Assembly (NCBI GenBank): GCA_047602465.1
Contig: JASGHF010000002.1
Span: 48,559 to 112,558, forward strand
Direction: 5' to 3'
DNA length: 64,000 nt
Source of the DNA: Micropepsaceae bacterium
GTDB taxonomy: Bacteria > Pseudomonadota > Alphaproteobacteria > Micropepsales > Micropepsaceae
Shown here: piece by piece, positions 4,701-45,778 of the stretch
Numbering within the stretch: the stretch's first letter is position 1
How the letters are laid out: each line of letters begins with the position of its first letter
Made by a program: the position numbers and the translations under genes
The notes under the pieces: generated by a model
Told to the model about the DNA's origin: nothing
The model's database searches: none
The model's input: only the letters and a program-made list of their open reading frames with translations

Positions 4701-5084
4701 ATGGGCTCGGTTCTGCATCACGTTTCGCTCGGCTCGAACGACATGACGAAGGCGCTCGCCTTCTATGACGCCACCATGGCGACGCTCGGCCTCAAGCGCG
4801 TTCTGGAGTTTCTCCCTCACGCCGTCGCCTATGGTGACGACCACCCGGTCTTCTGGATTCAGACGCCGCACGATGCGGGCAAGGCCAGCACCGGCAACGG
4901 CATGCATATCGGCTTCGCCGCAACCTCGAAGGATCAGGTCGAGGCGTTCCACGCTGCCGCCATCGCCCATGGCGGCCGCGACGACGGCGCCCCCGGCCCC
5001 CGGCCCGATTACGGCCATTCCTATTACGGCGCCTTCGTGCGAGACCCCGACGGCAACAAGATCGAGGCCTGCCTTCACGCATGA
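4701..5084 (+). CDS. VOC/glyoxalase family protein
   Basis: HHVSLG, MHIGFAA, YYGAFVRDPDGNKIEA. Confidence 0.88.
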   Translation: MGSVLHHVSLGSNDMTKALAFYDATMATLGLKRVLEFLPHAVAYGDDHPVFWIQTPHDAGKASTGNGMHIGFAATSKDQVEAFHAAAIAHGGRDDGAPGPRPDYGHSYYGAFVRDPDGNKIEACLHA

Positions 5085-5677
5085 CGAAAAAGCTTGAGCG
5101 CGGCGGCTGCGTCTGGCCCGGCTCCGACGCGCTCTATCTCGATTATCACGACACCGAATGGGGCGTGCCGGAGCGTGACGGCCGCGCCCTCTGGGAAAAG
5201 CTGATCCTCGACGGCTTTCAGGCCGGCCTCTCCTGGATCACCATCCTCAGGAAGCGCGAAAATTTCCGCCGCGCCTTCAAGGGCTTCGACCCTGAGAAGG
5301 TCGCCCGCATGACGGACAAGGATGTCGAACGCCTCCTGAAGGACGAAGGCATCATCCGCCATCGCGGCAAGATCGAAGGCGCCATCAAGAACGCCAAAGC
5401 GTATCTGGAGATCGAGAAGACCCATCCGGGCGGCTTCACCGCCTATTGCTGGGCGTTCGTCGACGGCAAGCCGCAGGTCAACGGCTTCACCACCATGAAG
5501 CAGGTGCCCGCCGCCACCGATCTCTCCACCGCCTTCTCCAGGGATCTCAAGAAGCGCGGCTTCACCTTCTGCGGCCCCACCATCGTCTATGCCTGGATGC
5601 AGGCCTGCGGCCTCGTCAACGATCACATGACCGATTGCTTCCGCCACAAACAGGTCGCCAAGGCCAAGAGGCCATGA
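5081..5677 (+). CDS. tag: DNA-3-methyladenine glycosylase I
   Basis: YHDTEWG, GFQAGLSWITIL, IIRHRGKI, CGPTIVYAWMQACG..NDH; ATGA overlap with the VOC gene. Confidence 0.95.
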   Translation: MTKKLERGGCVWPGSDALYLDYHDTEWGVPERDGRALWEKLILDGFQAGLSWITILRKRENFRRAFKGFDPEKVARMTDKDVERLLKDEGIIRHRGKIEGAIKNAKAYLEIEKTHPGGFTAYCWAFVDGKPQVNGFTTMKQVPAATDLSTAFSRDLKKRGFTFCGPTIVYAWMQACGLVNDHMTDCFRHKQVAKAKRP

Positions 5678-5757: not shown

Positions 5758-6072
5758 ATGCGGCGGCACAAACAATTCGCCTTCTACATTCTCGCCAGCC
5801 GCAAGCGCGGCACGCTCTATATCGGCGTCACCAGCGATCTGGCGGATCGCATCGCGCAACATCGCGCCCACGCACTTCCAGGTTTCACCGCGACCTACCA
5901 CGTCACGCGGCTGGTCCACTACGAATGGCTCGACAGCGCGGAAAGCGCGATCAAACGCGAGAAGCAGCTGAAACACTGGTTACGCAGCTGGAAGATCGAT
6001 CTCGTTGAACAGGCTAACCCGGCGTGGCGCGATCTTTGGCCTGCCCTGATCGGCGAACGCGAAATTGCGTAG
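5758..6072 (+). CDS. Small GIY-YIG nuclease family protein
   Basis: FYILAS..GTLYIGVTSDL..RI.QH and AIKREKQLKHW.R.WK..LVE..NP.WRDL. Confidence 0.92.
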   Translation: MRRHKQFAFYILASRKRGTLYIGVTSDLADRIAQHRAHALPGFTATYHVTRLVHYEWLDSAESAIKREKQLKHWLRSWKIDLVEQANPAWRDLWPALIGEREIA

Positions 6073-6077
6073 ATCGC

Positions 6078-6124
6078 GCTATGGCTCCTCGGGTTCGATG
6101 CTGCGCATCGCCCCGAGGATGACG
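6078..6124. repeat. CGTC-type REP, right copy in inverted orientation
   Basis: Reverse complement cgtcatcctcggggc...gaacccgaggagccatagc matches the left copy. Confidence 0.85.
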
Positions 6125-6148
6125 AATGGCAGGTGCGGCGCTTACGCC

Positions 6149-6508
6149 TCACGCATACGAGACCACCTCGAACTCGATCCCGTCGCTATCGAGGAAATAG
6201 AACCGCCTGCCGGGTTCGTAGCTGCCGTGATTGAACGCCGTCAGCCCCGCCGCCGTCACGCGCCGTTCGGCCTCATCCAGATCGTCCACCACGATCCCGA
6301 CATGGTTCAACCGCCCCTGCGGCGGCGCCCCGCCATTGGAATAGACCGCGAGATAATTGTCGTCCGCGCCCACATGCACCGTGTGCCCGCCGTTTTTCGC
6401 CGGCCCCTCCCAGCGGATTTTCCAGTCGAACAGCTTCACCAGCATCGCCGCGGTTTTCGCCGGCTCGCTGACCGTGATGTTCACATGCTCCAGCATCGCT
6501 TTTGTCAT
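6149..6508 (-). CDS. VOC family protein, probable SoxR target
   Basis: LEHVNITV, LNHVGIVV, RRFYFLDSDGIEFEV; ATG6508 preceded by AAGGAGG. Confidence 0.85.
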   Translation of the reverse strand: MTKAMLEHVNITVSEPAKTAAMLVKLFDWKIRWEGPAKNGGHTVHVGADDNYLAVYSNGGAPPQGRLNHVGIVVDDLDEAERRVTAAGLTAFNHGSYEPGRRFYFLDSDGIEFEVVSYA

Positions 6509-6562
6509 CGCCGCCTCCTTGCGCGCCCGGTGCGCGTCCTGCGTCGATTGCGATTTCTGCAA

Positions 6563-6580
6563 CCTCAACCTAACTTCAGG
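6563..6580. promoter_or_regulatory. SoxR operator (soxbox)
   Basis: CCTCAACCTAACTTCAGG resembles CCTCAAGTTAACTTGAGG; lies between divergent soxR and VOC genes, next to TTGACC on the minus strand. Confidence 0.8.
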
Positions 6581-6607
6581 TCAAGCACGATTTTTCCGGG
6601 GCGCGAC

Positions 6608-7081
6608 ATGCGCGCGACTGACCTCCTCACCATCGGCCAGCTCAGCCAGCGCACCGGGCTTTCGGTCTCCGCCATCCGGTTCTACGAAGAGAAGGGCCTC
6701 GTCAGCCCCGCGCGCAATGCCGGCGGCCAGCGCCGCTTCCCGCGCTCCGATATCCGCCGCCTCTCCTTCGTCGTCATCGCCCAGATGCTCGGCCTCTCCA
6801 TCGGCGACATCGAAGCCCAGCTCCGCACGCTCCCGCAGGGCCGCACCCCCACCCGTCAGGACTGGGCCGATATCTCCCGCCGCGTCCGCACGGCGATCGA
6901 CGATCGCATCGCCGCCCTCACCCGCATGCGCGACCGGCTCGATGGCTGCATCGGCTGCGGCTGCCTCTCGCTGAAGACCTGCGCGCTCTACAATCCGGAA
7001 GACCGCGCCGCGAAGGCCGGCAGCGGACCCCGATACGTACTCGGAGAACCGCCCAAATCCGCGCTTTCGCGCAAGAACTGA
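6608..7081 (+). CDS. soxR: Redox-sensitive transcriptional activator SoxR
   Basis: MerR HTH (LTIGQLSQRTG..SAIRFYE) and [2Fe-2S] motif CIGCGCLSLKTC. Confidence 0.95.
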   Translation: MRATDLLTIGQLSQRTGLSVSAIRFYEEKGLVSPARNAGGQRRFPRSDIRRLSFVVIAQMLGLSIGDIEAQLRTLPQGRTPTRQDWADISRRVRTAIDDRIAALTRMRDRLDGCIGCGCLSLKTCALYNPEDRAAKAGSGPRYVLGEPPKSALSRKN

Positions 7082-7151
7082 CGTTTCGTCAGCTTGCGGC
7101 CTCAGCCCCCATCTGGCACTTGTCCCGCCTTCCGTTTGCGTCAGGTCTCCC

Positions 7152-8504
7152 TTGAATTCGCTGAGCCCGTCCAAGGCCTTCACGGCCTCCATCGATCCCG
7201 CTGTGGCCGCCCGCCGCCGTGAGGCCGTGCTGCGCGGCGACGAGCCGCTGCGCATCCTCCTGCCAAGCTACCGCTCCGATCCGCATACCGGCGGTCAGGG
7301 CATCTATATGGACTACATGTCCCGGGCGATTCTGGAGCTTGGGCACGAGGTCGAAGTCATCTCCGGCCCGCCTTATCCGAACCTCGATAACCGCATCCTG
7401 CTCACCAAGCTGGAATCGCTCGATCTCTACGCCAAGCCCAAGAACTGGATGGGCATTCCCAGCTATCCCAAGGGCGCGCCGAAAACCTGGACCGATATCC
7501 AGGAATACATCACCCATATCTCGGGCGGCTTCGGCGAGCTGAAATCCTTCGGCGAGCGCCTCTACAAGCACATGCTCACCCGTCACCAGAACTACGACGT
7601 GGTGCATGACAACCAGACGCTCTGCTGGGGTCTCCTGAAAGTCCGCGATCTGGGCCTCCCCGTCGCCGGCACGATCCATCACCCCATCACCCGCGACCGC
7701 GACATCGCCATCGCGCATGCGAAGTCGCTAAAGCTCAAGCTGCTGATCCGCCGCTGGCACTCCTTCGTGAACATGCAGAAGAAGGTCGCCCGCCAGCTCG
7801 ATCCGGTCATCGTCGTTTCGGAATCCACCAAGCGCGACGTCGTCACCGAATTCGGCGTGAACCCCAAAAACATGCGCGTCGTGCTTCACGGCATCAACGC
7901 GCGCGACTTCCACCCGGAACCGGGCGTCGTCCGCAAGACCAACCGCATCATGTGCGTCACCAGCGCCGACGTCGCGCTTAAAGGTCTGATGTACCTGATC
8001 CACGCCTATGCGGATCTGCTGAAGACCCGCCCGGATCTCGAACTCCTCGTCGTCTCCAAGCTCCGCGAAGGCAACACCTCGCGCGCTCTGGATGAACTCG
8101 GCATCCGCGACCGCGTGAAGTTCGTCCACGGCCTCACGATTGAGGAAATGCGCCGCTACTACGCGGAAGCCACCGTCGCCGTGTCGCCGTCCGTCTATGA
8201 AGGCTTCGGCTTCCCGGCGGGCGAAGCGATGGCCTGCGGCGTCCCCGTCGTCGTCACCGAAGGCGGCTCGCTGCCCGAAGTCGCCGGCGATGCCGGTGTC
8301 ATCGTGCCGGTGCGCGACAGCGCCGCTCTCGCCCGCGCCATCGGCGATCTGCTGGATAATCCCGGCAAGCGCGTCGAGCTTGGCGCCGCCGGCTATCGCC
8401 GCATCCAGGAGAACTTCCTCTGGACCCGCGCGGCGGCTGACGCCGTCGCGGTCTACAAGGAAGCCATCGCCAAGCACTACGGCTTGCAGCACGTGCTGGG
8501 CTGA
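7152..8504 (+). CDS. GT4 glycosyltransferase, ManT-like (methylmannose polysaccharide mannosyltransferase homolog)
   Basis: SYRSDPHTGGQG, DVVHDNQ, TIHHPITRD, PSVYEGFGFPAGEAMACG (GT-B EX7E); TTG start uncertain. Confidence 0.85.
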   Translation: MNSLSPSKAFTASIDPAVAARRREAVLRGDEPLRILLPSYRSDPHTGGQGIYMDYMSRAILELGHEVEVISGPPYPNLDNRILLTKLESLDLYAKPKNWMGIPSYPKGAPKTWTDIQEYITHISGGFGELKSFGERLYKHMLTRHQNYDVVHDNQTLCWGLLKVRDLGLPVAGTIHHPITRDRDIAIAHAKSLKLKLLIRRWHSFVNMQKKVARQLDPVIVVSESTKRDVVTEFGVNPKNMRVVLHGINARDFHPEPGVVRKTNRIMCVTSADVALKGLMYLIHAYADLLKTRPDLELLVVSKLREGNTSRALDELGIRDRVKFVHGLTIEEMRRYYAEATVAVSPSVYEGFGFPAGEAMACGVPVVVTEGGSLPEVAGDAGVIVPVRDSAALARAIGDLLDNPGKRVELGAAGYRRIQENFLWTRAAADAVAVYKEAIAKHYGLQHVLG

Positions 8505-8507
8505 TCC

Positions 8508-9239
8508 GTGCAGACCATCAACCTCAAAATTCTCGATCTTCAGGACGGGATGCGCACGCTGGATCTCGGCTGCGGCCGCGGCCGCCACGTGCATCAGGCC
8601 TATTATCACGCCGTCGGTCACGTCGTCGGCGTCGATCTCGGCTTCGAAGACGTCGTCTCCACGCGCGAGGGCTTCAAGCAGGCCCCCGACATGGACCCGA
8701 ACTCAAAACGCGCCTACTCGCTCTCCCTGGCGGATGCGCTGAAGCTTCCCTTTCCGGACGCCTCGTTCGACCGCGTGATCTGCTCCGAGGTGATGGAGCA
8801 CATTCCCGACTACAAATCGGCGCTCAAGGAAATCGCCCGCATCCTGAAACCCGACGGCAAGTTCGGCGTCTCGGTGCCGCGCGCCTTCCCGGAATGGGTC
8901 TGCTGGAAGCTTGAAGAGCGCTACCACAACAATCCCGGCGGACACGTCCGCATCTTCCGCACCTCGGGCCTCAAGCGCGACGTGACCGAAGCGGGTTTCA
9001 AGTTCCGCCGCCGTCACTGGGCGCACGGTCTCCACTCGCCCTATTGGTGGCTTCAATGCGCGATGTGGGACAAGCGCGACACCAGCCGCATGGTCCGCGC
9101 CTACCGCAAGTTCCTTGAGTGGGACATCCTCAAGCGCCCCCTTCTGACACGCGCCCTGGAGAAGATCGCTGACCCGCTGATGGGCAAGTCGATCGTGCTC
9201 TATTTCGACAAGGTGCCAGCTCCTGCGGGCGCGGCATGA
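8508..9239 (+). CDS. Class I SAM-dependent methyltransferase, OmT-like
   Basis: LDLGCGRGRH, ICSEVMEHI, YHNNPGGHVRIF, HGLHSPYWWL, PLMGKSIVLYF. Confidence 0.85.
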   Translation: MQTINLKILDLQDGMRTLDLGCGRGRHVHQAYYHAVGHVVGVDLGFEDVVSTREGFKQAPDMDPNSKRAYSLSLADALKLPFPDASFDRVICSEVMEHIPDYKSALKEIARILKPDGKFGVSVPRAFPEWVCWKLEERYHNNPGGHVRIFRTSGLKRDVTEAGFKFRRRHWAHGLHSPYWWLQCAMWDKRDTSRMVRAYRKFLEWDILKRPLLTRALEKIADPLMGKSIVLYFDKVPAPAGAA

Positions 9240-10312
9240 AGCTGCCCGCCGGCTTCTTTGACGGCGCGCTCAAGCGCATCCTCAGCCTGCAAAGGCCGGA
9301 TGGCGCGATTCCGTGGTTCTCCAAAGGCGTCTTCGACCCCTGGAACCACACCGAGGCGGCCATGGGCCTCGCCATCCTCGGGCACGTCACCGAAGCCCGG
9401 CACGCCTACGACTATCTCGCTTCATCACAGGAAGCCGACGGCTCCTGGTGGGCCCATTACGGCAGCTCCGTGAACCTGGAAACCGGCCGTTACGAGGGCA
9501 CGGGCGACGAACCCAAGAAGCGCGACACCAATTTCTGCGCCTACCCCGCCACCGGCGTCTGGCATCTCTATCTCGTCACCAATGACCGCGCCGTCCTCAC
9601 CCGCTATTGGCCGATGGTGAAGAAGGCGATCGATTTCGTCCTCGCTCTTCAGTCGCCCCACGGCGATATCCGCTGGGCCGCCCCCGGACCGGAAGCCGAA
9701 CCGGACGACGCGCTCATCACCGGCTGCGCCTCGATCTTCCACAGCCTCGGCTGCGCCATCGCCATCGCCGGCACACTCGGCCACGACACCACCCGCTGGA
9801 CCAAATCGCGCGTCGCGCTCCGCGATTGCCTGCTGACGAAGCCCGAGCGTTTCGACCGCACCTGGCCGAGCAAATCCAACTTCTCGATGGACTGGTATTA
9901 TCCCGTCCTCTGCGGCGTCCTCACAGGCGACGCCGCCCGCGCCCGCCTTGCCTCGCGCTGGGACGAATTCGTCGTCGATGGCCGCGGCTGCCGCTGCGTG
10001 CTTGGCGAACCCTGGGTCACCATCGCCGAAGGCTGTGAACTCGCCATCACCCTCATGGCCACCGGCGACACCGCGGCTGCGCGCGAGATGTTCCACCTCC
10101 AGGACCAATGGCGCGACGACAGCCGCGCCTACTGGATGGGATTCCAATACGCCGAGAATGTTCCCTGGCCGGTCGAAAAACCTGCCTGGACCGCTGGCGC
10201 CGCGATCCTCGCCGCTGACGCGATCTACGGCCTCAGCCCGGCATCCAGCCTCTTCACCCGGCCGCTACCCGGCCAGTCGTACGAGCAGCCGCAGCGACTT
10301 GATCTGCTCTAG
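9236..10312 (+). CDS. (alpha/alpha)6-barrel protein (prenyltransferase-like repeats), MmpH-like hydrolase
   Basis: QRPDGAIPW..DPWNH.EAAM, DTNFCAY.ATGVWH, FSMDWYYPVL, PWVT.AE.CEL, WTAGAAILAADA; ATGA overlap. Confidence 0.78.
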   Translation: MKLPAGFFDGALKRILSLQRPDGAIPWFSKGVFDPWNHTEAAMGLAILGHVTEARHAYDYLASSQEADGSWWAHYGSSVNLETGRYEGTGDEPKKRDTNFCAYPATGVWHLYLVTNDRAVLTRYWPMVKKAIDFVLALQSPHGDIRWAAPGPEAEPDDALITGCASIFHSLGCAIAIAGTLGHDTTRWTKSRVALRDCLLTKPERFDRTWPSKSNFSMDWYYPVLCGVLTGDAARARLASRWDEFVVDGRGCRCVLGEPWVTIAEGCELAITLMATGDTAAAREMFHLQDQWRDDSRAYWMGFQYAENVPWPVEKPAWTAGAAILAADAIYGLSPASSLFTRPLPGQSYEQPQRLDLL

Positions 10313-10882
10313 TTCACGGAACTGCCGGCTCGCCAGCGCCGCCTTGTATATCTCGAACGGCGACCGCCCCCCGTCCTCCGGATTGGGAAAGACGTCGTGG
10401 ATGGCGAGATAGCCGCCCGGCATGATGTGCGGCGCCCAGCCACGATAATCCGCCAGCGCCAGTTCCATCGAATGGCCGCCATCGATGAACAGGAACGCCA
10501 GCGGCGTATGCCAGTGCCGCGCCACCGTCGCCGACCGGCCGACGATGGAGATCACATTATCCTCCAGATGCGCACGACGCAGCGTGTCGCGCAGGAACGG
10601 CAGCGTTTCCATCGACCCGGCCTTGGCATCCCACGTTTCAGGGTCGTGATGCTCCCAGCCCGGCTGCATCTCCTCCGATCCACGATGGTGATCCACCGTG
10701 AACAGCATCCCGCCACGCGCCTTGCAGGCCGCCCCGAGATAGAGCGCCGACTTGCCGCAATAGCTTCCGACCTCCAGACAAGGCCCCCACGCCACCGCAT
10801 CCTGCGCCCAGCGATACAGCGCCGCGCCTTCTTCGGGGTCCAGAAACCCCTTCACGCTCTCAGGATCGATCGGAAGTCTCAC
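10265..10882 (-). CDS. Class I SAM-dependent methyltransferase (Methyltransf_24), MeT1-like 1-O-methyltransferase
   Basis: KGFLDPEEG, EVGSYCGKS, TVDHHRGSEEMQPGWEHHDP, FIDGGH, HDVFPNPEDGG; GTG start overlaps the SDR stop (GTGA). Confidence 0.88.
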   Translation of the reverse strand: MRLPIDPESVKGFLDPEEGAALYRWAQDAVAWGPCLEVGSYCGKSALYLGAACKARGGMLFTVDHHRGSEEMQPGWEHHDPETWDAKAGSMETLPFLRDTLRRAHLEDNVISIVGRSATVARHWHTPLAFLFIDGGHSMELALADYRGWAPHIMPGGYLAIHDVFPNPEDGGRSPFEIYKAALASRQFRELEQIKSLRLLVRLAG

Positions 10883-11730
10883 GGCATGATGCCTGTCAGC
10901 CGCTCGCTCACGGCCCAAAGCTGTTTGCCCGCCGCCGCGTCCTGCGCCTGGCGCGAAGGCGTCGCCAACTTCGACTTCACAAAATACCCGCCCGTCACAT
11001 CGGCGACCTCATCCGACGAACACAGATAGATCGAGGTTTTCGCGCCCTTCTCCACGCTGATGGCGAAGAAGTTCTTCGCGATGCCGATCGCCCAGGCGAT
11101 GCCGCCCTTCTCGGAACCGGCGAAGCTCGACGCGACGAATCCCGGATGCAGGCAGTTCACCATCACCTGCCTCGGGTCGACCCGCGTGGCCAGCTCCCGC
11201 GTGAACAGGATGTTCGCCAGCTTCGAGCGCTGATAGGCGCGCCACGCGCTGTATCGCCGCTCGCCCTGCAGATCGTCGAAATCCAGCGACACGCCCGCGT
11301 GGGCGTCCGACGCCACATTCACCACCCGCCCCCGCGGCGCCGCATGCAGCGCATCAAGCAGCAGGTGCGTCAGGAGAAAATAGCTGAGGTGGTTGAATCC
11401 GAAATTCATCTCGATCCCGTCCGCAGTCAGCCGCCGCTCGGAAAAGTATCCGCCGGCATTATTCAGCAGGACGTCCAGCTTCGGCGCATTGGCGGCCACC
11501 TGCGCCGCCAGCCGCCGGATAGCCGCTTGTGATGACAGATCGGCCAGATAGGTCGCCGGCGGCTTGCCACCCGCCGCTTCGGCCACCTTGGCGGCTGCGA
11601 GCGACAGCTTTTCCGGGTTGCGCCCGACCAGATGGAGACTTGCCCCCAATCGAGCCAATTCAATCGCCGCCTGGAGGCCGATCCCATCGGTCGCCCCGGT
11701 CACAAGAATGCGCTTGCCCTCAACACTCAT
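10879..11730 (-). CDS. Short-chain dehydrogenase/reductase (retinol dehydrogenase-like)
   Basis: TGATDGIG, NNAG, VVNVASDAH, YQRSK, HPGFV. Confidence 0.9.
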   Translation of the reverse strand: MSVEGKRILVTGATDGIGLQAAIELARLGASLHLVGRNPEKLSLAAAKVAEAAGGKPPATYLADLSSQAAIRRLAAQVAANAPKLDVLLNNAGGYFSERRLTADGIEMNFGFNHLSYFLLTHLLLDALHAAPRGRVVNVASDAHAGVSLDFDDLQGERRYSAWRAYQRSKLANILFTRELATRVDPRQVMVNCLHPGFVASSFAGSEKGGIAWAIGIAKNFFAISVEKGAKTSIYLCSSDEVADVTGGYFVKSKLATPSRQAQDAAAGKQLWAVSERLTGIMP

Positions 11731-11908
11731 GGCGATGTCCCGATGGTCCCGGCCGACCCGAATTGTGACGCTGACGACTATCTAGCGCGCCCGGAGGGCA
11801 GGAAGCGAGCGTCAAGCCATTCTTATTGTTCAGCCTTCGGGAAAACCCCTGTAATCGGGTATTCTTGCGCAACTGATTTGCTGCGACGCGCGGCCGCCCT
11901 GCCGCCTT

Positions 11909-12766
11909 GTGGACAACCGCCTCCGCATGACTGCCCCGGCGACCATGGAAATGTTCACCTACGCCTCGCCGGAGGATTCTGCGGCGCGTCGGGCGGTGAT
12001 CCGCAGCATCGAGCGCGCCACCGGCCAACCGCACCTCAAGCGTCTCTACGAGCAATTCCAGAACGATCTTGCCGCCGGGCGCAGCACCGACGACTTCTTC
12101 ACGGCCGGCGTCAAGAAGCTGGAGCTGGACCTCGTCTATGACCGGGCCAGGCTCCTTGCCGCGCCGAAAACCGGCCCGCTGGTCGTCATCGCCAATCATC
12201 CGTTCGGGGTGCTGGACGGCATTGTCATCTGCCACCTGATGCTTCAGCTGCGCCGGGATTTCCGTATCCTGTCCAACAGCGCGCTCTACCGGGTTCCGGA
12301 AATCTACGACTGGCTGCTGCCGGTCGATTTCAACGAGACCCGTGAGGCGTTGGCGACCAACCTCAGGAGCCGCGCCGAAGCCCGGAAATTCCTGGAAGGC
12401 GGCGGCGCGCTCATCGTGTTTCCGGCGGGCGGCGTGGCCACCACCCCAAGCGCTTTCGCACGTCATGCCGTCGATGCCGAATGGAAGCCGTTGACCGCCA
12501 AACTGATTCTTCAGGGCCGCGCCCCGGTCCTCCCGATCTTCTTTCACGGTCAGAACAGCCGCCTCTTCCAGATCGCCAGTCAGATCAGCCTGACGATGCG
12601 GCTAGCCCTGATTTTCCGTGAAGTTCATCGCCGGATTGGAACTAAACTTCCTGTTAGCATTGGCGAGACAATTCCCTTCGAACGAATCGCGGAAATAGGC
12701 GACAAGCGGCAGGTCATGACCTTCCTCAGGGATTCGGTTCACAAGCTCGCGGGCACGGCAGGATGA
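11909..12766 (+). CDS. Lysophospholipid acyltransferase family protein
   Basis: ANHPFGVLDG (HX4D) and VFPAG; the start may be ATG11927. Confidence 0.85.
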   Translation: MDNRLRMTAPATMEMFTYASPEDSAARRAVIRSIERATGQPHLKRLYEQFQNDLAAGRSTDDFFTAGVKKLELDLVYDRARLLAAPKTGPLVVIANHPFGVLDGIVICHLMLQLRRDFRILSNSALYRVPEIYDWLLPVDFNETREALATNLRSRAEARKFLEGGGALIVFPAGGVATTPSAFARHAVDAEWKPLTAKLILQGRAPVLPIFFHGQNSRLFQIASQISLTMRLALIFREVHRRIGTKLPVSIGETIPFERIAEIGDKRQVMTFLRDSVHKLAGTAG

Positions 12767-13542
12767 TCGATATCTCGGTCATCACCGTGTCGCTGAATGC
12801 GGCGTCGACCATCGCGCGGACGATCGATTCGGTGCGTGCGCAGACCGGCGTGCTGATCGAGCACATCGTCGTCGACGGCGGCTCGACCGATGGCACGATG
12901 GATATCGTCCGGGACCGCCGGCAAGGCTTCGCGCAGGTCGTCAGCGAACCTGACCACGGCCTCTACGACGCCATGAATAAAGGTCTCGCGCTCGCCCGAG
13001 GAAAACTCACCGGCTATCTCAACGCCGATGACGCCTTTGCCAGCCCGGATTCTCTGTCGCGGCTTGTTGACGCCTGGCGCCGAACCGGCTCCGACGCCGT
13101 TTACGGAGACGTTCTGCAGGTAGATGCCCAGGATCGCCCTGTCAGAATGATTTCCGGCGGCGCGTTCTCGCCCGAGCGCCTGCGTCGTGGACTGATGCCG
13201 CCGCACCCCAGCTTCTACGCCCGCACAGCTGCTCTGCGAGAAGCAGGCGGGTTCAACACCGCCTATACCATCGCTGCCGACTTCGACCTCGTCGCGCGCA
13301 CCTTCGCGCAACCCGGCTTCGAGGCTGCTTATGTCCCTGCAATCGTCGCCAATATGCGTATTGGCGGCGTCAGCACGCGCAACCTCAAGGCGACCCGCGT
13401 CGCTACGGCGGAAATTCTCAGATCGTGCCGCGCCAACGGCATCGATGCGACACCCTGGAGTGTCCTGTCGCGCTACCCTCTCAAGGCGCGGGAGGTCATT
13501 GACGGGCGCTGGATGCGGCTCAGGGGCTATCAGGCCGGCTAG
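12763..13542 (+). CDS. GT2 family glycosyltransferase
   Basis: VVDGGSTDGT, SEPDHGLYDAMNKG, YLNADD, PPHPSFY. Confidence 0.9.
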   Translation: MIDISVITVSLNAASTIARTIDSVRAQTGVLIEHIVVDGGSTDGTMDIVRDRRQGFAQVVSEPDHGLYDAMNKGLALARGKLTGYLNADDAFASPDSLSRLVDAWRRTGSDAVYGDVLQVDAQDRPVRMISGGAFSPERLRRGLMPPHPSFYARTAALREAGGFNTAYTIAADFDLVARTFAQPGFEAAYVPAIVANMRIGGVSTRNLKATRVATAEILRSCRANGIDATPWSVLSRYPLKAREVIDGRWMRLRGYQAG

Positions 13543-13585
13543 GCCGGCCTGACAATCAAGAAGCCGCGTGTAGGGGGCACTTTTT

Positions 13586-14620
13586 TTGGAGCTGGTTGAG
13601 ACGATAGCGCTGCCAGGCGTGGTCGGGGCCTTTTCGGCGCTTGTGCTCTGCCTTGCGCGCATGCCCATCGCCCGCACGATGGCGCTCGTCGACCGGGCGG
13701 ACCATCCGCGCAAGGCGCATATCGGCGCAGTCCCTCTGGTCGGCGGCATCGCCCTGTTTCCCGCCATCGCCATCGCCTGCATTCAGGCCGTGGCGCTGGG
13801 CGCTTCGGATGACGCCCTGGGTATGATGGTCGGCGTTGTCTTCAGCTTCTTCATGATCGGCTATGCCGACGACCGCATGCAGATCAGGCCGTCGCGCCGG
13901 CTGCTGCTGACCCTCGTTCTCTTTGCGGCCCTGGTGCTGATGACGCCGGCCTTTATGCCATCTGTGTTCACGATCGGCGGCCTGGAGCTGCATATCGGAC
14001 CCGGCACGATCGCCCTGCTCGCCATTATCGGCGCCAGCGGCGCCCTGAACGCGATCAATATGGCCGACGGACAGGATGGTCTCTGCGTCGGGCTGCTTCT
14101 TATCTGGCTGATGTTTCTCGCCGCGAAGTCGACGCTTCCCGTGCAGAGCGCTGCTCTGCTCGCGGCACTCGCACTCGGCGTCGTGCTCGTCTTCAATCTC
14201 GCGGGTCTCGTCTTTCTCGGCGACATAGGCGCCTATGGCGTCGGCGCGTTCGTCCTGTCGCTGATGCTCTACGGCGCCGGCGATGGCTCCATTGATCACG
14301 GTCAGATCGTCGCTCTGCTTGCAGTCCCCGTCACCGATTGCATCCTGCTGATGATCGAAAGGGTGCGGGGCGGCCATTCGCCTTACGACCCTGACCGGCA
14401 GCATCTGCATCACATATTGCAGGCGACATTCGGCAAGTGGCCGAGCCTTGCCGTTTATCTCAGTTTCGTCGCCCTCTGCGCCTTCGGAGCATATATGAGC
14501 GGCCCGGCAACGATTGTCGCCATAGGCGGCGCGATCGCCTTTGTCGTGATCGCCCGCCGGTTTGGACGGCGTGAGACTGAAGACGGGCCGCCATTGGCCG
14601 GCGACGATCTTCTCACCTAG
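13586..14620 (+). CDS. MraY/WecA-like undecaprenyl-phosphate sugar-1-phosphate transferase
   Basis: PRKAH...PLVGG, GYADD, NAINMADGQDG, FLGDIG, DRQHLHH; multiple TM segments. Confidence 0.88.
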   Translation: MELVETIALPGVVGAFSALVLCLARMPIARTMALVDRADHPRKAHIGAVPLVGGIALFPAIAIACIQAVALGASDDALGMMVGVVFSFFMIGYADDRMQIRPSRRLLLTLVLFAALVLMTPAFMPSVFTIGGLELHIGPGTIALLAIIGASGALNAINMADGQDGLCVGLLLIWLMFLAAKSTLPVQSAALLAALALGVVLVFNLAGLVFLGDIGAYGVGAFVLSLMLYGAGDGSIDHGQIVALLAVPVTDCILLMIERVRGGHSPYDPDRQHLHHILQATFGKWPSLAVYLSFVALCAFGAYMSGPATIVAIGGAIAFVVIARRFGRRETEDGPPLAGDDLLT

Positions 14621-17715: not shown

Positions 17716-18591
17716 ATGATCAAGTTGCTGCTTATGCTGGGCTTTTTGGCGGCGGCGCAACCTGCGCCGACTTTGTTGCTGCCCGCTCAACCGCTGGGTG
17801 AGCCGATCGACTGCAACGGCCCGGTCTTCAAGGCGCAGATCTTCAATGACGATCTGGAATGCCGCGAAGTCTCCCGGACCAGGCTCACCATCAACGATCA
17901 AACGATCACCCTCCGCCTGCTGCACGACGAGGATGTGGACGCCACCCTCCCGCCCGGCTATGCGGAAGCGGCCTACCAGGCCATCGCCCGCTCCTTTGAA
18001 GTCGTCGCCAAGGAACGCGGCCTCAAATTCCACAATGTCTCGATCCTTCCGGTCGAGGCCTACGGCCAGCGCCGGGAAGCGCGAATGTCGGGCGTCACCT
18101 ACTGGCGCGGAAAGTCGGAATGCATCATCGCGCTCGAAGTGATCACGGCCTCGCGCCTGACGGCAGAAGAGAACCTGCATATGTTCAGGTTCATCGTGAC
18201 GCACGAGGCCTTTCACTGCGTCCAGTCCTGGAACTGGTCGCACCAGATGGCGCTGGAGACGTCCACCTGGTGGCGCGAAGGATCGGCGGACCTCATCGGC
18301 ATGCTCGCCTATCCCGGCGCTTCGGCGCAGAAGAAGGTCAACCAGGGATTCGCCGAAATCGCCGACGCCAAGTCCGTGCTAGAGATGGACTATGGCAATG
18401 TCGTCTTCTTCCATTGGCTATGGTCGCAGTCGCCGTCCCAGGTATTCGATCTGATTGCGGCGATGCCGACGGACAAGGCCTACGATTCGATGGCCTCCCA
18501 GGAGGCTGCCCTGCATGCCTTCCTGCCAAAGGAAGCCCCCGGCAAATATGCCGCCGCCTATCGCGGTGCGCGGATCTACGCCCAGCAGTAA
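17716..18591 (+). CDS. Secreted putative zinc metallopeptidase (HExxH-x20-E), catalytic domain only
   Basis: Signal-peptide-like N-terminus; THEAFHCVQ...WWREGSA; paralog of 61007-62710. Confidence 0.65.
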   Translation: MIKLLLMLGFLAAAQPAPTLLLPAQPLGEPIDCNGPVFKAQIFNDDLECREVSRTRLTINDQTITLRLLHDEDVDATLPPGYAEAAYQAIARSFEVVAKERGLKFHNVSILPVEAYGQRREARMSGVTYWRGKSECIIALEVITASRLTAEENLHMFRFIVTHEAFHCVQSWNWSHQMALETSTWWREGSADLIGMLAYPGASAQKKVNQGFAEIADAKSVLEMDYGNVVFFHWLWSQSPSQVFDLIAAMPTDKAYDSMASQEAALHAFLPKEAPGKYAAAYRGARIYAQQ

Positions 18592-21790: not shown

Positions 21791-22315
21791 TCAGGCCCTC
21801 ATCGGCGCGATGACGCGCCGCTCGATGAAGGCGAAGGCGAAGCCGAAGAACGGGTAAAGGCCAATGGAAACCAGCCCCTGCACCACGAATTTCAGCGGCT
21901 CCTGCACCTCCCACGCATAAAGCGACCACAGCCCCCAGGCGAGGAAGCAGGCCGTCGCGCAGGTCAACGCGAACAACGCCCACGCCGTGTAGATCACACG
22001 CCCGAACGTGTCGCGCAGCACCAACGCCATGGCGTGACAGACGAGGAATGTCAGCGCCCACAGACCGAGCGGCGCGCCGCTCAGCAGGTCATAGGCGAGA
22101 CCCGTGAAGAAAATCGGGGCGGGGGTCATCAGATCACCCCGATGCGTGCCGAAGAAGAACACCACCATCAGCGGATAGAGCGGCGTCATCTCCAGATCGC
22201 CCGGCATTCTCAGCGGCAGGATGGCGATGATGACGGCCAGGATCGCCAGCAGGAACGGCATCCGCCGTCCGATCCATTTGATGAAGCGCGAGAAGATCGA
22301 AATGACCATCGTCAA
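21791..22315 (-). CDS. mreD: Rod shape-determining protein MreD
   Basis: Hydrophobic, GLAYDLLSGAPLG motif, located between mreC and mrdA. Confidence 0.9.
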   Translation of the reverse strand: MTMVISIFSRFIKWIGRRMPFLLAILAVIIAILPLRMPGDLEMTPLYPLMVVFFFGTHRGDLMTPAPIFFTGLAYDLLSGAPLGLWALTFLVCHAMALVLRDTFGRVIYTAWALFALTCATACFLAWGLWSLYAWEVQEPLKFVVQGLVSIGLYPFFGFAFAFIERRVIAPMRA

Positions 22316-31177: not shown

Positions 31178-31921
31178 ATGTCATTCCTGAAACGGCTCTT
31201 CGGCGGATCGGCACCAGCCCCTGAACCCGCACCGCGACCTGCAGAGGCCGACGCCATCGTGCAATGCCGGACGCACGTAGCCAGCTTCGACAGACGCCAT
31301 CAGCCCAGAGAATGGGCCGAGGCGATGCAGCTTCTCGGCCACAACCTGATGGCGACCGCGAGCTACGCCGAAGCGGATGAAACGCTCACCAAGGCGCTCG
31401 AGGCTGCCGGGCATGATGCCAATCCGCTCTTCCGCGCCTCCATGCTGAAAATTCTGGGAGAAACGCGCTACCGGCACGGAGAAACGCTCACAGGTGACGC
31501 GCGCGGTGTCATGCTCGCCGGCGCCGCCAACACGCTGGCCGATGCGCTTGCGCTCGTGCAGCCGCACGAAAACCGCACGCTCTGGATGGAGGCCGCGATT
31601 TTTCGCGGCGCCGCGTTGCACGAACTCGGGCGGCTTCGCTCCGGTCCGGAAGGTCTCGCCTGGATGGATGAGGCCGCCGCCTGTTTCGCCGATATAGCCG
31701 CACACGGCGCGGAAGGAGCGGTCCATCCCGTTGGCCTCTACAATCGCTACGCGGTCATGGAACAGCGCGGTCACCGCACGAGCGGCGCAGGCCGCGCGAT
31801 GTATTACAGAGAGGCGCGCGAAGCGCTCGCCGGAGCCATGGCGGCCGATACTTTCGCGAACCGCCCGGATCTCACCGTGAAGCTCGCTGAACTCGATGCC
31901 TTGATCGAGGCAGCAGACTGA
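31178..31921 (+). CDS. Hypothetical helical-repeat (TPR-like) protein
   Basis: 247-aa Ala-rich ORF with repeated WA.A...LG..L and LG..L..LG patterns; high-GC codon usage. Confidence 0.6.
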   Translation: MSFLKRLFGGSAPAPEPAPRPAEADAIVQCRTHVASFDRRHQPREWAEAMQLLGHNLMATASYAEADETLTKALEAAGHDANPLFRASMLKILGETRYRHGETLTGDARGVMLAGAANTLADALALVQPHENRTLWMEAAIFRGAALHELGRLRSGPEGLAWMDEAAACFADIAAHGAEGAVHPVGLYNRYAVMEQRGHRTSGAGRAMYYREAREALAGAMAADTFANRPDLTVKLAELDALIEAAD

Positions 31922-32873: not shown

Positions 32874-33758
32874 ATGAACTGGATCGCTGTCCTCGTCGGC
32901 GCACGCAGCACAGGCGGCCTCGACGCCGCCATAGTTTCGGACGCGCGCGCGGCCGTTGGCGGCGGAGAGCCTGTCTGGCTGGCCGATGGCCTTGCCGCAG
33001 AGTTCGCCCTGACCGCCCCCTCCTGGCGACCCGTTGACGCCCTCATCCGCCAGACCCTTGCCGGCCGCCCCATCGATATCGCCGTCCTGCCGGCCGAAGG
33101 CCGCCGCAAACGCCTGTTCGTCGCCGACATGGATTCCACCATTATCGGCTGTGAGTGCATCGACGAACTGGCCAATTTCGCCGGCGTGAAGGTTGAGGTT
33201 TCCGGCATCACGGAGCGCGCCATGAGAGGAGAGCTGGATTTCCCCTCCGCCCTGCGTCACCGCGTCGAGCTGCTGAAAGGCCTGCCGCTGCACGCCTTGC
33301 AGCAGGCCTATGACGAGCGCGTGCGTCTCAATCCCGGCGCCCGCACGCTCGTTCAGACGATGGCGGCCGCCTCCGCCGTCACCGCCCTCGTTTCCGGCGG
33401 GTTCACCTTTTTCACGGCCCGCGTCGCGGCCGCCGCAGGGTTTGCGTTCAATCGCGCCAACGTGCTGATCGACGACGGCGCAGCGTTGACCGGCGAGGTC
33501 GGCGAACCGATCCTCGGCCGCGAAGCGAAACTCGCCGCGCTGCTGGAGCTTGCCACCGCCAACAACCTGGAACCGTCCGATTGCATCGCCGTCGGCGACG
33601 GCGCGAACGATCTCGCCATGATCGAAGCCGCCGGCCTTGGCGTCGCCTATCGCGCAAAGCCTGTCGTAGCCGATGCGGCGCGCGCGCGTATCGACTACGC
33701 CGACCTGACCGCGCTTCTCTACTTCCAGGGCTATCGGGAGTCCGAGTTCGCCGCCTAG
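32874..33758 (+). CDS. serB: Phosphoserine phosphatase
   Basis: ADMDSTII, ERAMRGELDF, VSGGF, GDGANDL. Confidence 0.96.
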   Translation: MNWIAVLVGARSTGGLDAAIVSDARAAVGGGEPVWLADGLAAEFALTAPSWRPVDALIRQTLAGRPIDIAVLPAEGRRKRLFVADMDSTIIGCECIDELANFAGVKVEVSGITERAMRGELDFPSALRHRVELLKGLPLHALQQAYDERVRLNPGARTLVQTMAAASAVTALVSGGFTFFTARVAAAAGFAFNRANVLIDDGAALTGEVGEPILGREAKLAALLELATANNLEPSDCIAVGDGANDLAMIEAAGLGVAYRAKPVVADAARARIDYADLTALLYFQGYRESEFAA

Positions 33759-36613
33759 CGCGGCGGCTGGGCGATCACCAGGACCCAGTATTTGACGCCG
33801 CCGGCTTCCGCCATGCCGACGCCGATGGCGACGGCCGCCGGGTCCGTAAGCGCCGTCGCGGTGTCGCCGCGCCCGCTCCAGAACGCGACGGCTTCTCCGG
33901 CTGAATTCTGGCGGCGCGAGTGGAGCTGTGAAGCCGCAGCATTTCCATAACCCGACTGCCTCAACATCTGGAGCACGGCGCTGCCCGACGGCTGCTGGAT
34001 CTTTCCAAGCCGCGCGTTGTTCGCAGCCAGCACCTGCGCCACCTTGTCCAGCGCATCGCTCGCCGCCACATCGCGCACGCCGCTGCGCTGGCGGAAAGCG
34101 TTCACCGGCCCCAGCGCCTGCGCGCTGAAACTTCCGGAGGTGACGGGCGGCGGCTCGGCCGTCGGCGTTGGCGAAGGAGCGGGCGTCGGCGCGGCGGTGG
34201 GGGTCGGCGTCGGCTTGGGTGGCGCTTTGGACGGCCCGCCATACGCTTCCGGCGTAACATTGAACTCCGACAGCACGGCGCCGTCCGGACCGGCGCGGCC
34301 GATGAAACTGTCATCGAGGATCACGTCCAGCGCGCCGGCATCGGACGCCGACACCGACAGGTCACGGCGATCCGGCATATGATAGCTGTCGCCGCGTTTC
34401 AGATCGCGGTCGATCAGTTCGTCGCGTCCGCCACGCACCGTCAGCCTGACGCTGCGCCGCGCGACATAGACGATGCGTCCGCCTTCGCCCTGCGCGCCAT
34501 AGGCACGGCCTGTCTGGCCCTGCACTTTCGTACCACGGGGCGCCGCCTCGATTGCGCCCGTCGCACGTGGCGCCTCCGGGGTCGGAGGTGGTGTTGGTGT
34601 CGGCGACGCGGTCGGTTCGGGCGTCGCCTCGGGTGTGGGCGTGATGACCGGTGAGGGTGTCGGGGCGGTCGTAGGCGTAGGCGTCGGAACGACCGTTGGC
34701 GTAGCCGTCGGCGACGGCGCGCGAGGCGGCGGCGTTCCGGCAATTGTCGGCGTCGGTACGATCGTCGGCGCCGGCGTGACCTCCGCAACCGGCGGGCCGG
34801 ACACGGGCGGCGGCTCGTCACCCGGCAGAAGGAAGAAGACCGCCGCGGCGCCGACGACTGCCAGCGCCACGAACTGCCCCACGGCAATCAACGGCGAACG
34901 GCGCGGCGCTTCGTCCGGCCCTGCGTCGGCAGGCTCCATGTCCGGCGAAACCGGATCGCCGCTACCGCCATCTGTATCCGCCTCGAAAGCTTCATCGATG
35001 GCCGGCGTTTCCGGCGGCGCGATAGGTATGACGACTGACTTTTCGAAGACTTCCAGCGACGGCTCCGGCAGCTCCGCGTCCGGCGCTTCGACCGGCAGGG
35101 CGGCGGCCAGCGCTTCCATCTCCGGCGGCGCCTCGGGCATAGCGGCTTCGGCATCGCCCGGAACGGGCGCCGCGACCACAGGCGGCGCGTCCTCGCTCAT
35201 CGTTTCGAACAGCCGCGCGACCTCGTCCATGGTCTGCGGCCGGTCGGCAGGATCGGGCTGAAGCAGATGCGTCAGCACCCGGGCCAGCGGAAGCGGCAAC
35301 TCGTCGAGCGGCGGAACCGCCAGCCGCCTGGCCTTGGCGGCTTCGATATCGCGGCCCATGTTCAGCGGCTTGCCACGGCTGAACGCCGCCATCAGAAGCC
35401 CGAAGGCATAGATATCGATCGAGGGGCCGAGCTTTGCCCCATCGAAGGTGAACTGCTCCGGGGCGGCATAGCTGAACTTGCCGGCGAAAGCGCCGCCGAG
35501 CGAATCGACATCGCCCATGCGCGCGATACCGAAATCGATCAGCGTCGCTTCCGACAGATCGCCCTGCCAGATGATGACATTGTCCGGCGCGAGATCACGA
35601 TGGATGATACCCCGCCTGTGTGCGGCCGACAGGCCCTGCGCCAGGCGCACCGCGACGATCCGCACATCGTCCAGCGATGGCGTATTGGCCCGCCGCCAGT
35701 CGCGCAGCGTCGGCCCCGGCACGAATTCGGTGACGAGATAGAACTGGTCGGAATCCGCGATCCGGCCGAACACGCGATACTGCACCACAGCCGGATGCTT
35801 CAGCCGCAGCAGCGCGTTGGCTTCCAGCTTCAACAATTGCGCGAACCGCTCGCTCGCCGCCACGTCGGCCAGCAGCAGCTTCAGCGCGACGCGCTCGTCC
35901 TCGTTGTGGATGTTGGCGGCTTCATAGACTGCGCCGAACCCGCCGGCCCCGAGACGGCGGACGATGCGGTACTGACCGATTTCGTCCCCCGGATGCAGAT
36001 CGCCGGGGCCGCCGCCGCGCATACGCACCGACACCAGCTTTTCGCTGGTCGAAGGCGCGCCCGACGCGCCGCTCAGTCCTCCCGACAGGCCGACCGAAGG
36101 CTGTGTCGGCGCCGCGTGCGAGGCCTCGTCGGCCTGGCTCTTCATGATGATGGTGGAGCGCTCGAAATCCAGCTCCTCACCCTCGGATGGCTGTGAAGGC
36201 TCGACCGGCAGCGCTGCATCCGGCACCGCCGCGCCGACCCGCCCGCGTAGCTGCGCGATCACTTCATCCAGCCCTGCCGCGCCGGACACCCAGCCGCGCA
36301 GGTCGGCGCAGCGGAGCTGGCGGAAGCCCAGCGGCGGCTTCTCGACATCCTTCAGAACAGGCAGCAGAACCCCGCGCTCGAAGGCCTCCTGCGCGACGTC
36401 ACGGACCCAGTTGGAATTGCGCGAGGCATTCGACCAGACAGCGATGATCGCCTTGGCGACGGACAGTTCCTCGTCCACGTCGCGCTGGGTCGACTGCCCA
36501 AGCGCCGGGGCCAGATCCCACAGCACATCGAAGCCGGCATCGCTCAGCGCGCCGGCGAACACGCCGACCCAGGCCCTGTCTTCGGGCGCAAAGCTGATGA
36601 AGACGTCGGCCAC
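33755..36613 (-). CDS. TIR-domain / Ser-Thr protein kinase / TM / RodZ-C(DUF4115)-like / CAP-like multidomain protein
   Basis: TIR start ADVFISF..EDR; kinase GAGGFGAVY, VALK, HRDLAPDN, DFG, YAAPE; TM LIAVGQFVALAVVGAAAVFFLL; Pro/Thr linkers; RDLKRGDSY..SDAGALDVILD; VNAFRQRSG..WSG..IGVGMA..KYWVLV. Confidence 0.85.
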   Translation of the reverse strand: MADVFISFAPEDRAWVGVFAGALSDAGFDVLWDLAPALGQSTQRDVDEELSVAKAIIAVWSNASRNSNWVRDVAQEAFERGVLLPVLKDVEKPPLGFRQLRCADLRGWVSGAAGLDEVIAQLRGRVGAAVPDAALPVEPSQPSEGEELDFERSTIIMKSQADEASHAAPTQPSVGLSGGLSGASGAPSTSEKLVSVRMRGGGPGDLHPGDEIGQYRIVRRLGAGGFGAVYEAANIHNEDERVALKLLLADVAASERFAQLLKLEANALLRLKHPAVVQYRVFGRIADSDQFYLVTEFVPGPTLRDWRRANTPSLDDVRIVAVRLAQGLSAAHRRGIIHRDLAPDNVIIWQGDLSEATLIDFGIARMGDVDSLGGAFAGKFSYAAPEQFTFDGAKLGPSIDIYAFGLLMAAFSRGKPLNMGRDIEAAKARRLAVPPLDELPLPLARVLTHLLQPDPADRPQTMDEVARLFETMSEDAPPVVAAPVPGDAEAAMPEAPPEMEALAAALPVEAPDAELPEPSLEVFEKSVVIPIAPPETPAIDEAFEADTDGGSGDPVSPDMEPADAGPDEAPRRSPLIAVGQFVALAVVGAAAVFFLLPGDEPPPVSGPPVAEVTPAPTIVPTPTIAGTPPPRAPSPTATPTVVPTPTPTTAPTPSPVITPTPEATPEPTASPTPTPPPTPEAPRATGAIEAAPRGTKVQGQTGRAYGAQGEGGRIVYVARRSVRLTVRGGRDELIDRDLKRGDSYHMPDRRDLSVSASDAGALDVILDDSFIGRAGPDGAVLSEFNVTPEAYGGPSKAPPKPTPTPTAAPTPAPSPTPTAEPPPVTSGSFSAQALGPVNAFRQRSGVRDVAASDALDKVAQVLAANNARLGKIQQPSGSAVLQMLRQSGYGNAAASQLHSRRQNSAGEAVAFWSGRGDTATALTDPAAVAIGVGMAEAGGVKYWVLVIAQPPR

Positions 36614-45632: not shown

Positions 45633-45778
45633 CCCCGCCCCTCGTGATTCGTAAGCAGCAGAGCCTAGCACCACTCTTCCCCAGGGCGGCTGGGGATAAC
45701 CTTCAGCGCGTGGAAATGGCGGAATTCCGCCCCTGGTCAGAGGTGATGATTTTTCCTCTCCGACCCCTTATATTCATC

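Follow-up and report, generated by a model that had tools for sequence, protein, structure and literature searches.

A predicted methylmannose polysaccharide-type gene cluster in an alphaproteobacterium and its relatives in other Gram-negative lineages

A 64,000-nucleotide stretch of contig JASGHF010000002.1 from a Micropepsaceae bacterium (assembly GCA_047602465.1; this whole stretch is called the window below) contains four adjacent genes that resemble the methylmannose polysaccharide (MMP) gene cluster of mycobacteria. We consider it probable that these four genes make, and recycle by themselves, a cytoplasmic MMP-like methylated alpha-1,4-mannan. The original prediction for this DNA spoke of either an acyl-chain carrier of the MMP type or some related methylated glycan, and this cautious wording is at the right level, with orthology, gene order, and the fold of the barrel protein all in agreement with it.

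The four genes and their mycobacterial counterparts

The four genes, and the one lying upstream of the last of them, are listed here with the lengths of the four proteins in amino acids (aa). SAM is S-adenosylmethionine, SDR is short-chain dehydrogenase/reductase, and ORF is open reading frame.

7152-8504, + strand: GT4 glycosyltransferase, ManT-like, predicted alpha-(1->4)-mannosyltransferase; 450 aa; Pfam Glyco_transf_4 and Glycos_transf_1
8508-9239, + strand: class I SAM-dependent methyltransferase, pMeT3-like, predicted sugar 3-O-methyltransferase; 243 aa; Pfam Methyltransf_11/23/25/31
9236-10312, + strand: (alpha/alpha)6-barrel protein, MmpH-like, predicted recycling endo-alpha-(1->4)-mannosidase; 358 aa
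10265-10882 (longest ORF to 10918, 217 aa), - strand: Methyltransf_24 methyltransferase, MeT1-like, predicted reducing-end-capping 1-O-methyltransferase; 205 aa from GTG
10879-11730, - strand: SDR gene, upstream of the MeT1-like gene; Pfam adh_short

A GT4 enzyme, a class I methyltransferase, and a barrel protein in a tight operon, with a second methyltransferase facing them, had been described at this locus, and coordinates, spacing, and Pfam assignments bear this out. Three nucleotides separate the ManT-like and pMeT3-like genes, the start of the MmpH-like gene overlaps the pMeT3-like stop by 4 nucleotides, and the MmpH-like and MeT1-like genes run toward each other and have 48 nucleotides in common at their 3' ends (10265-10312). 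Comparable convergent overlaps of about 26-41 nucleotides, as counted on aligned regions, occur in six loci of Alpha- and Gammaproteobacteria (L001, L003, L038, L045, L059, and L067). Since the 3' ends overlap, there is no room for a terminator between these two genes, and interference by antisense transcripts is possible. A promoter and terminator scan of positions 6500-12100 returned no promoter and 2 terminator-like sites, with 3.5 expected by chance.

The longest reading frame of the ManT-like gene begins with TTG at 7152, and an alternative GTG at 7227 would give a 425-aa form, as called in the close relative L083. For the MeT1-like gene, the GTG at 10882 (read on the minus strand) yields a protein of 205 aa, the length called in relatives, and is most likely the true start; the end coordinate originally quoted for the cluster is this same GTG. 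It shares bases with the TGA stop of the SDR gene lying upstream (GTGA), so that the SDR and MeT1-like genes are probably co-transcribed or translationally coupled. An SDR gene adjoins MeT1 in only 3 of 82 loci (L001, L008, and L067), all of them from Alphaproteobacteria; the SDR is a lineage-restricted neighbor, and its membership in the module is doubtful.

In mycobacteria, the MMP cluster has the order ManT-pMeT3-MmpH-MeT1 (M. hassiacum MHAS_04402-04405 and M. smegmatis MSMEG_6481-6484; Maranha 2023, PMC9883506). A match of the window's genes to the mycobacterial ManT, MmpH, and MeT1 families had been proposed from motifs, and reciprocal searches and structure comparison both agree with it. 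When the window proteins were searched against all Protein Data Bank (PDB) sequences, with identities taken from BLASTP, the sole match of the MeT1-like protein was M. hassiacum MeT1 (6G7D/6G80/6H40; E 9.5e-67, 53% identity over 198 aa). The MmpH-like protein had M. hassiacum MmpH as its top match (7QSJ; E 6.3e-84, 44% identity), the next match being at E 0.008. The top match of the ManT-like protein was M. hassiacum ManT (7QSG; E 1.5e-103, 46% identity over 415 aa; next match 3e-19), an entry that carries a generic name in the PDB and is the ManT structure of Maranha et al. The pMeT3-like protein has no close solved relative among the PDB sequences, as expected for a family in which no structure has been solved and no enzyme characterized (PMC9883506).

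The reciprocal search was made with the four proteins of locus L079 from a Mycobacteriaceae bacterium, in which ManT, MmpH, and MeT1 have 82-88% identity to those of M. hassiacum. Each of the four found a single match in the window: ManT found the ManT-like gene (45% identity, E 5e-88), pMeT3 the gene at 8508-9239 (40%, E 6e-54, reciprocal), MmpH the MmpH-like gene (46%, E 4e-78), and MeT1 the MeT1-like gene (52%, E 3e-53). Values of about 1e-53 to 1e-103 between window and mycobacterial proteins are not due to chance. An AlphaFold2 model of the MmpH-like protein (pLDDT 93.1) superposes on 7QSJ with TM-scores of 0.86/0.89 and a root-mean-square deviation of 1.9 A; in Foldseek, this model returned MmpH at 8e-33, followed by glycoside hydrolase (GH)-type barrels at about 1e-9 or weaker. 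The corresponding model of the pMeT3-like protein (pLDDT 91.6) has the sugar O-methyltransferases RebM and AtmM as its nearest folds, at a generic TM-score of about 0.64. As judged from sequence, all four window proteins are orthologs of the mycobacterial MMP cluster proteins.

General family models say less about these proteins. The MmpH-like protein gives only weak (alpha/alpha)6 glycosidase/cyclase signals in Pfam, and none of the four has a specific model in NCBIfam, which returned nothing or far-sub-threshold matches for MmpH and MeT1. MmpH and the GH15/GH125 families (clan GH-L) have in common an (alpha/alpha)6 barrel, an inverting mechanism, and a Glu catalytic base, and the Joint Genome Institute (JGI) labels some MmpH homologs as GH15/GH125-type glycosidases. 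The MmpH-like protein stays below the profile thresholds of these families, with TIGR01577 scoring 23.9 bits against a cut-off of 820 and PF22422 scoring 17.2 against 27. The -1-subsite Arg/Asp pair of GH15/GH125 is absent from MmpH (PMC9883506).

All of the motifs originally quoted for the four proteins are present, and each aligns with its M. hassiacum or mycobacterial counterpart sequence. Those of the first three proteins include SYRS....GGQG, HDNQ, HHPITRD, YHNNPGGHVRI, HSPYWWL, DTNFCAYPATGVWH, and SMDWYYP, and the remaining ones are GSYCGKS, DHHRGSEEMQPGWEHHDP, and HDVFPNPEDGG. The residues described or mutated in the mycobacterial enzymes (PMC9883506) were then checked in alignments of 75 ManT and 84 MmpH homologs. 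In MmpH, the catalytic base Glu262 and the acid candidate Asp47 are invariant in all 84 sequences, the window's included, as are Glu265, Trp49, Asn101, Met215, Tyr219, and Trp315, with Thr163 and Phe102 nearly so. In ManT, Gly15, His142, Lys240, Glu313, Gly314, Phe315, and Glu321 are invariant in the 75 sequences, and the equivalent of Leu291 is retained as Leu in the window. The catalytic residues proven by mutagenesis (MmpH E262 and D47; ManT E313, E321, and K240; PMC9883506) are therefore all conserved in the window. Across 64 sequences, the MeT1 motifs G.YCGKS, DHH.GSEE.Q, FIDGGH, and HD reach 97% conservation or more, and the same level of conservation is found in 75 pMeT3 family sequences, actinobacterial members included, for residues within YH.N.GGH.RI and HSPYWWL. 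By all sequence criteria tested, two ligand-contact positions excepted, the window's genes are assigned to the MMP clusters.

Compared with the mycobacterial cluster, that of the window is alike in its four families, gene order, convergent MeT1, catalytic residues, MmpH fold, and predicted solubility of the proteins, and differs in its Gram-negative host, in an Asn and a loop in MmpH, in an Ile and a Phe in ManT, and in a MeT1 gene that is probably coupled to an SDR gene.

Predicted product and competing readings

The mechanism that we propose follows the one established for M. hassiacum and M. smegmatis (PMC9883506). The ManT-like enzyme would use short methylated mannosides as primers and add mannose to them in alpha-(1->4) linkage, the donor being a nucleotide sugar, probably GDP-mannose, and the pMeT3-like enzyme would O-methylate the added residues, presumably at position 3. 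The MeT1-like enzyme would methylate the free 1-OH of the reducing end as a cap, and the MmpH-like enzyme would cleave mature chains internally, yielding oligomers that prime new chains. Cleavage and re-priming together would amount to a "partially conservative" self-replication of the polymer. Mycobacterial MMP is an alpha-(1->4)-mannan with 1-O-methyl and 3-O-methyl groups and a length of about 11-14 residues; for the window, we infer which sugar is donated and in what linkage, where it is methylated, how long the chains are, and where in the cell and for what physiological purpose the polymer occurs.

Since MmpH is a hydrolase and the carriers of this module include versatile environmental heterotrophs, the cluster could also be read as catabolic, scavenging methylated mannans from other organisms such as actinobacteria or fungi. 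We regard this as highly improbable. Three of the four genes are anabolic (one glycosyltransferase and two SAM-dependent methyltransferases), the conserved module has no transporter, secretion signal, or demethylase, and in mycobacteria these four genes serve biosynthesis (PMC9883506).

A crude Kyte-Doolittle scan of the four proteins revealed no signal-like N-terminus and no membrane segment, the sole hydrophobic peak, in the MmpH-like protein, being an inner helix of the barrel. Clustering of flanking ORFs likewise revealed no transporter, flippase, ABC exporter, or polymerase in the conserved module. Because the proteins lack signal and membrane segments, and because a 1-O-methylated reducing end cannot be lipid-linked, the product is most likely free in the cytoplasm, a methylated oligo- or polysaccharide that would be able to wrap acyl chains. 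A functional analog is the mycobacterial 6-O-methylglucose lipopolysaccharide (MGLP), also a cytoplasmic polymethylated alpha-(1->4)-hexan and proposed acyl-CoA binder. MGLP differs in its unrelated genes (GpgS, GpgP, OctT, and others), which were not seen here, in its glucose backbone, and in being acylated.

The same observations bear on a role in the cell envelope, in which the genes would belong to a lipopolysaccharide, O-antigen, or exopolysaccharide pathway and assemble or trim a methyl-capped surface mannan like that of Escherichia coli O8/O9a. The location gives some reason to consider this: the window cluster adjoins genes for an acyltransferase, a GT2 enzyme, and a WecA-like initiating transferase (11909-14620), and the Halieaceae cluster is flanked by rmlBDAC, waaA, and tolC. 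These neighbors are lineage-specific, however, with the GT2/WecA set common only to the closest relative with a complete genome, Alphaproteobacteria bacterium SO-S41, and with different flanks in Parvibaculum. The missing flippase, ABC exporter, and polymerase and the predicted solubility of all four proteins also argue against an envelope pathway. Reducing-end 1-O-methylation of the MeT1 type would be incompatible with an undecaprenyl-diphosphate-linked intermediate, and O-antigen assembly has no step for an intracellular endo-hydrolase. The O8/O9a polymannan resembles the predicted product in being a methylated mannan of a Gram-negative bacterium (WbdD carries out the methylation) and differs in its single cap at the non-reducing end and in being a lipid-linked, exported alpha-1,2/1,3-mannan; its enzymes WbdA/B/C/D and Wzm/Wzt have no homologs in the window module. 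An envelope role is thus very unlikely.

Several observations weigh against a product and role identical to those of mycobacteria. The window proteins have only 40-53% identity to their mycobacterial counterparts. MmpH Asp50 is replaced by Asn37 in the window, and by Asn in 17 of 17 alphaproteobacterial homologs, whereas the position is Asp in Gammaproteobacteria (40/42), Desulfobacterota (14/14), and Actinobacteria (5/5); the D50A variant of M. hassiacum MmpH is nearly inactive (PMC9883506). Alphaproteobacterial MmpH additionally has an extra loop of 11-14 residues near residues 80-95, without counterpart in the mycobacterial enzyme. In ManT, the guanine of GDP-mannose is recognized by Leu291 and Asp293 (N2), the role of Asp293 being only inferred (PMC9883506); the window has Ile330 in place of Asp293 and so does not retain this proposed guanine contact, at a position that is variable outside Actinobacteria. 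ManT Leu317 is replaced by Phe in the alphaproteobacterial clade, the window included. The function of pMeT3 is putative and biochemically uncharacterized even in mycobacteria (PMC9883506). No gene for GDP-mannose synthesis was found among the approximately 45 annotated genes of the window, the rest of the genome being outside the scope of the analysis. Proteobacteria are also not known to have fatty acid synthase I (FAS-I), the proposed physiological partner of MMP. Proteobacteria make fatty acids by FAS-II, and modulation of FAS-I therefore cannot be the conserved function.

These differences raise the question of whether the same enzyme families make a different methylated glycan in this organism, with another hexose donor, methylation position, or chain length, and possibly another role. 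The modest identity to characterized enzymes, the absence of the proposed guanine-contact residue Asp293, and the Asp50 replacement and clade-specific loop of MmpH all speak for this possibility, as does the addition of a hexapeptide acetyltransferase in other lineages, by which the product would vary between lineages; an acetylated variant is known from Streptomyces griseus (PMC9883506). On the other side, the MmpH sugar-subsite residues Asn101, Phe102, Thr163, Met215, Tyr219, Trp315, and Glu265 are invariant or nearly so in 84 sequences that span four phylum- or class-level groups, Glu313, Gly314, and Phe315 that hold the mannosyl group in ManT are invariant, and the MeT1 signature motifs are conserved. 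We therefore judge a different glycan unlikely, if clearly less so than an envelope or catabolic function, and favor the MMP-like mannan. The D50N, D293I, and loop differences, together with the accessory acetyltransferase elsewhere, nevertheless suggest that the product is not uniform across lineages.

Distribution, inheritance, and surroundings of the module

A scan based on the MmpH alignment, with one genome per GTDB species, recovered at least 600 candidate stretches. Of these 600, 597 were confirmed as loci with MmpH homologs, and the best 80 loci were examined for their origin. Among these 80, Alphaproteobacteria were represented by Parvibaculum/Parvibaculales, Rhodobiaceae, Micropepsaceae, and OCS116, and Gammaproteobacteria by Halieaceae, Luminiphilus, Cellvibrionaceae, Microbulbifer, Spongiibacteraceae, SAR86, and Pseudomaricurvus. 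Desulfobacterota were represented by Smithella, Syntrophaceae, Desulfobacteraceae, Desulfomonilia, and Desulfarculus, and Actinobacteria by Dietzia, Streptomyces, and Mycobacteriaceae. The arrangement ManT+ MeT3+ MmpH+ MeT1- was found in all 58 of the complete four-gene loci recovered, which come from Alpha- and Gammaproteobacteria, Desulfobacterota, and Mycobacteriaceae and include the mycobacterial L079. The claim of a complete MMP-like cluster in an alphaproteobacterium stands, the four genes being intact; the cluster is not peculiar to this organism, being common in Alpha- and Gammaproteobacteria and in Desulfobacterota. When 1.84 billion cluster representatives were searched exhaustively with HMMER, the MmpH family turned up in 206 clusters at E <= 1e-30, these being distinct 50%-identity clusters, and in 801 at E <= 1e-10. 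Database labels for the proteins include "prenyltransferase", "hypothetical protein", "GH15 family glucan-1,4-alpha-glucosidase", "class I SAM-dependent methyltransferase", and "UbiE".

What remains linked across these genomes is restricted to the four genes. SO-S41 has 78-89% aa identity to the window and the whole neighborhood in common with it, whereas Parvibaculum has only the four genes in common and quite different flanks. All-against-all clustering of flanking ORFs found no further universally linked family. Since only these four genes stay linked, we take them to be a functional unit. Two natural fusions, P0135 (590 aa) and P0202 (606 aa), begin with a pMeT3-like methyltransferase and end in an MmpH-like barrel, and thereby independently link these two predicted activities. 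Other long forms (P0176 and P0182) have additional N-terminal extensions.

Some lineages depart from this pattern. A gene for a 240-aa hexapeptide-repeat acetyltransferase directly follows MmpH in 15 loci, 4 in Cellvibrionales/Microbulbifer (L031, L033, L044, and L050) and 11 in Desulfobacterota (L063-L065, L068-L071, L074, L076, L077, and L082), which suggests acetylated variants of the polymer in those lineages, as known from S. griseus. S. griseus also provides MMP-type homologs of similar divergence outside Mycobacterium, its ManT being 53% identical to the M. hassiacum enzyme (PMC9883506); the window differs in having no acetyltransferase in its module. The Streptomyces locus L078 has no MeT1 within 6 kb. 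In five loci of Desulfobacteraceae and relatives (L065 and L069-L072), MmpH is present with no ManT, pMeT3, or MeT1 homolog within 6 kb, and the module may be reduced or split there. The acetyltransferase adjoins MmpH in 4 of these 5 loci, and in L069 an unrelated GT4 gene lies 3 kb off on the opposite strand.

Halieaceae loci (L014-L055) have rmlB, D, A, and C (dTDP-rhamnose) upstream of the module and waaA and tolC downstream, which is probably family-level synteny and not functional linkage. In sequence collections, the best homolog of the MmpH-like protein reaches 88% identity, and for sequencing runs the shared 31-mers amount to 8% at most. No RNA sequencing runs were found for Microbulbifer.

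The history of the module was addressed with a neighbor-joining tree of the four concatenated proteins (59 taxa, 1207 columns, 100 bootstraps), which was midpoint-rooted and built on a sampling biased toward query-like sequences. This tree places the window with SO-S41 (100/100), unites all alphaproteobacterial loci and one unclassified Pseudomonadota metagenome-assembled genome in a single clade (100/100), and joins the mycobacterial locus to Desulfobacterota (97/100). Single-protein trees show class-level clades as in the concatenated tree. The third-codon-position G+C content (GC3) of all four genes, 0.77-0.85, is typical of the genome. A transfer from Actinobacteria had been raised as something for a phylogeny to decide, and with the window inside the alphaproteobacterial clade, a recent transfer is contradicted. 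This tree position and the native codon usage together rule out a recent actinobacterial import, and vertical inheritance within Alphaproteobacteria offers the best explanation for the gene trees and composition. The earlier reading of the host as an alphaproteobacterium is confirmed by an alpha-type two-piece tmRNA at 45742-46051 and by nearest relatives that are Alphaproteobacteria.

The genes to either side of the module in the window are the following.

5081-5677: tag
5758-6072: GIY-YIG-like ORF
6149-6568, - strand: glyoxalase-family gene
6608-7081, + strand: MerR-family regulator with a SoxR-type CIGCGCLSLKTC cluster motif, divergent from the glyoxalase-family gene
11909-14620, + strand: operon for an OlsF/GlsA-like lyso-lipid acyltransferase, a WcaE-like GT2 enzyme, and a WecA-like polyprenyl-phosphate sugar-phosphate transferase

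In L083, whose MeT3 is 98% identical to that of the window, ManT directly follows tag, and the block at 5758-7081 is thus a variable insertion outside the module. The 11909-14620 operon is divergent from the SDR gene and common to SO-S41 only. The GT2, WecA, acyltransferase, and SoxR-like regulator genes were considered as parts of the module and rejected, since they are not conserved beyond the closest relative. The remaining window is ordinary core chromosome, with mreBC, PBP2, leuA, ilvIH, miaA, degP, thyA, and fumC.

Elsewhere in the window, 33755-36613 (-) encodes a 952-aa protein that starts with a TIR domain, continues with a Ser/Thr protein kinase domain, and ends in a CAP (SCP/PR-1) domain, an unusual architecture that could be related to defense or signaling. 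Four reading frames have coding-type GC3 and no Pfam match: 60584-62710 (+), 17716-18591 (+), 31178-31921 (+), and 21791-22315 (-). The last of these, situated between mreC and PBP2, is probably mreD.

Implications for methylmannose polysaccharides

For decades, MMP has been regarded as peculiar to mycobacteria and some few actinomycetes, and its function is debated, with modulation of FAS-I, buffering of acyl-CoA, and cold adaptation all under discussion. The cluster survey of PMC9883506 covered Actinobacteria only. In the literature searched, most subscription journals lying beyond that search, we found no report of an MMP cluster outside Actinobacteria and no paper tying methylmannose polysaccharide to the Gram-negative groups that carry it. 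The cluster in the window, taken as predicted from its sequence, extends the taxonomic range of MMP substantially, and the occurrence of the four-gene set in many Gram-negative lineages suggests that an MMP-type polymer is probably far more widespread than thought, with the same module in abundant marine Gammaproteobacteria and anaerobic Desulfobacterota.

A broader proposal, which we advance tentatively as a real possibility on which opinion could fall either way, is that MMP-type polymethylated mannans are old and widely distributed cytoplasmic glycans of Gram-negative bacteria with a general role not linked to FAS-I. If so, the carriers would include Parvibaculales and other Alphaproteobacteria, the Halieaceae, Cellvibrionales, and SAR86, and lineages of Smithella, Syntrophaceae, and Desulfobacteraceae, and the general role might be the buffering of long acyl chains or other hydrophobic metabolites, or adaptation to cold. 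Anecdotally, many of the carriers are lipid or hydrocarbon specialists, which would fit such a role.

The physiology of these polymers can now be tested in organisms that have neither FAS-I nor a mycolic-acid envelope, and MmpH D50N and ManT position 293 offer natural variation for structure-function work. Thousands of genes now labeled "prenyltransferase", "UbiE methylase", or "hypothetical protein" would gain a specific functional hypothesis, namely that they participate in the synthesis and recycling of an MMP-like polymer.

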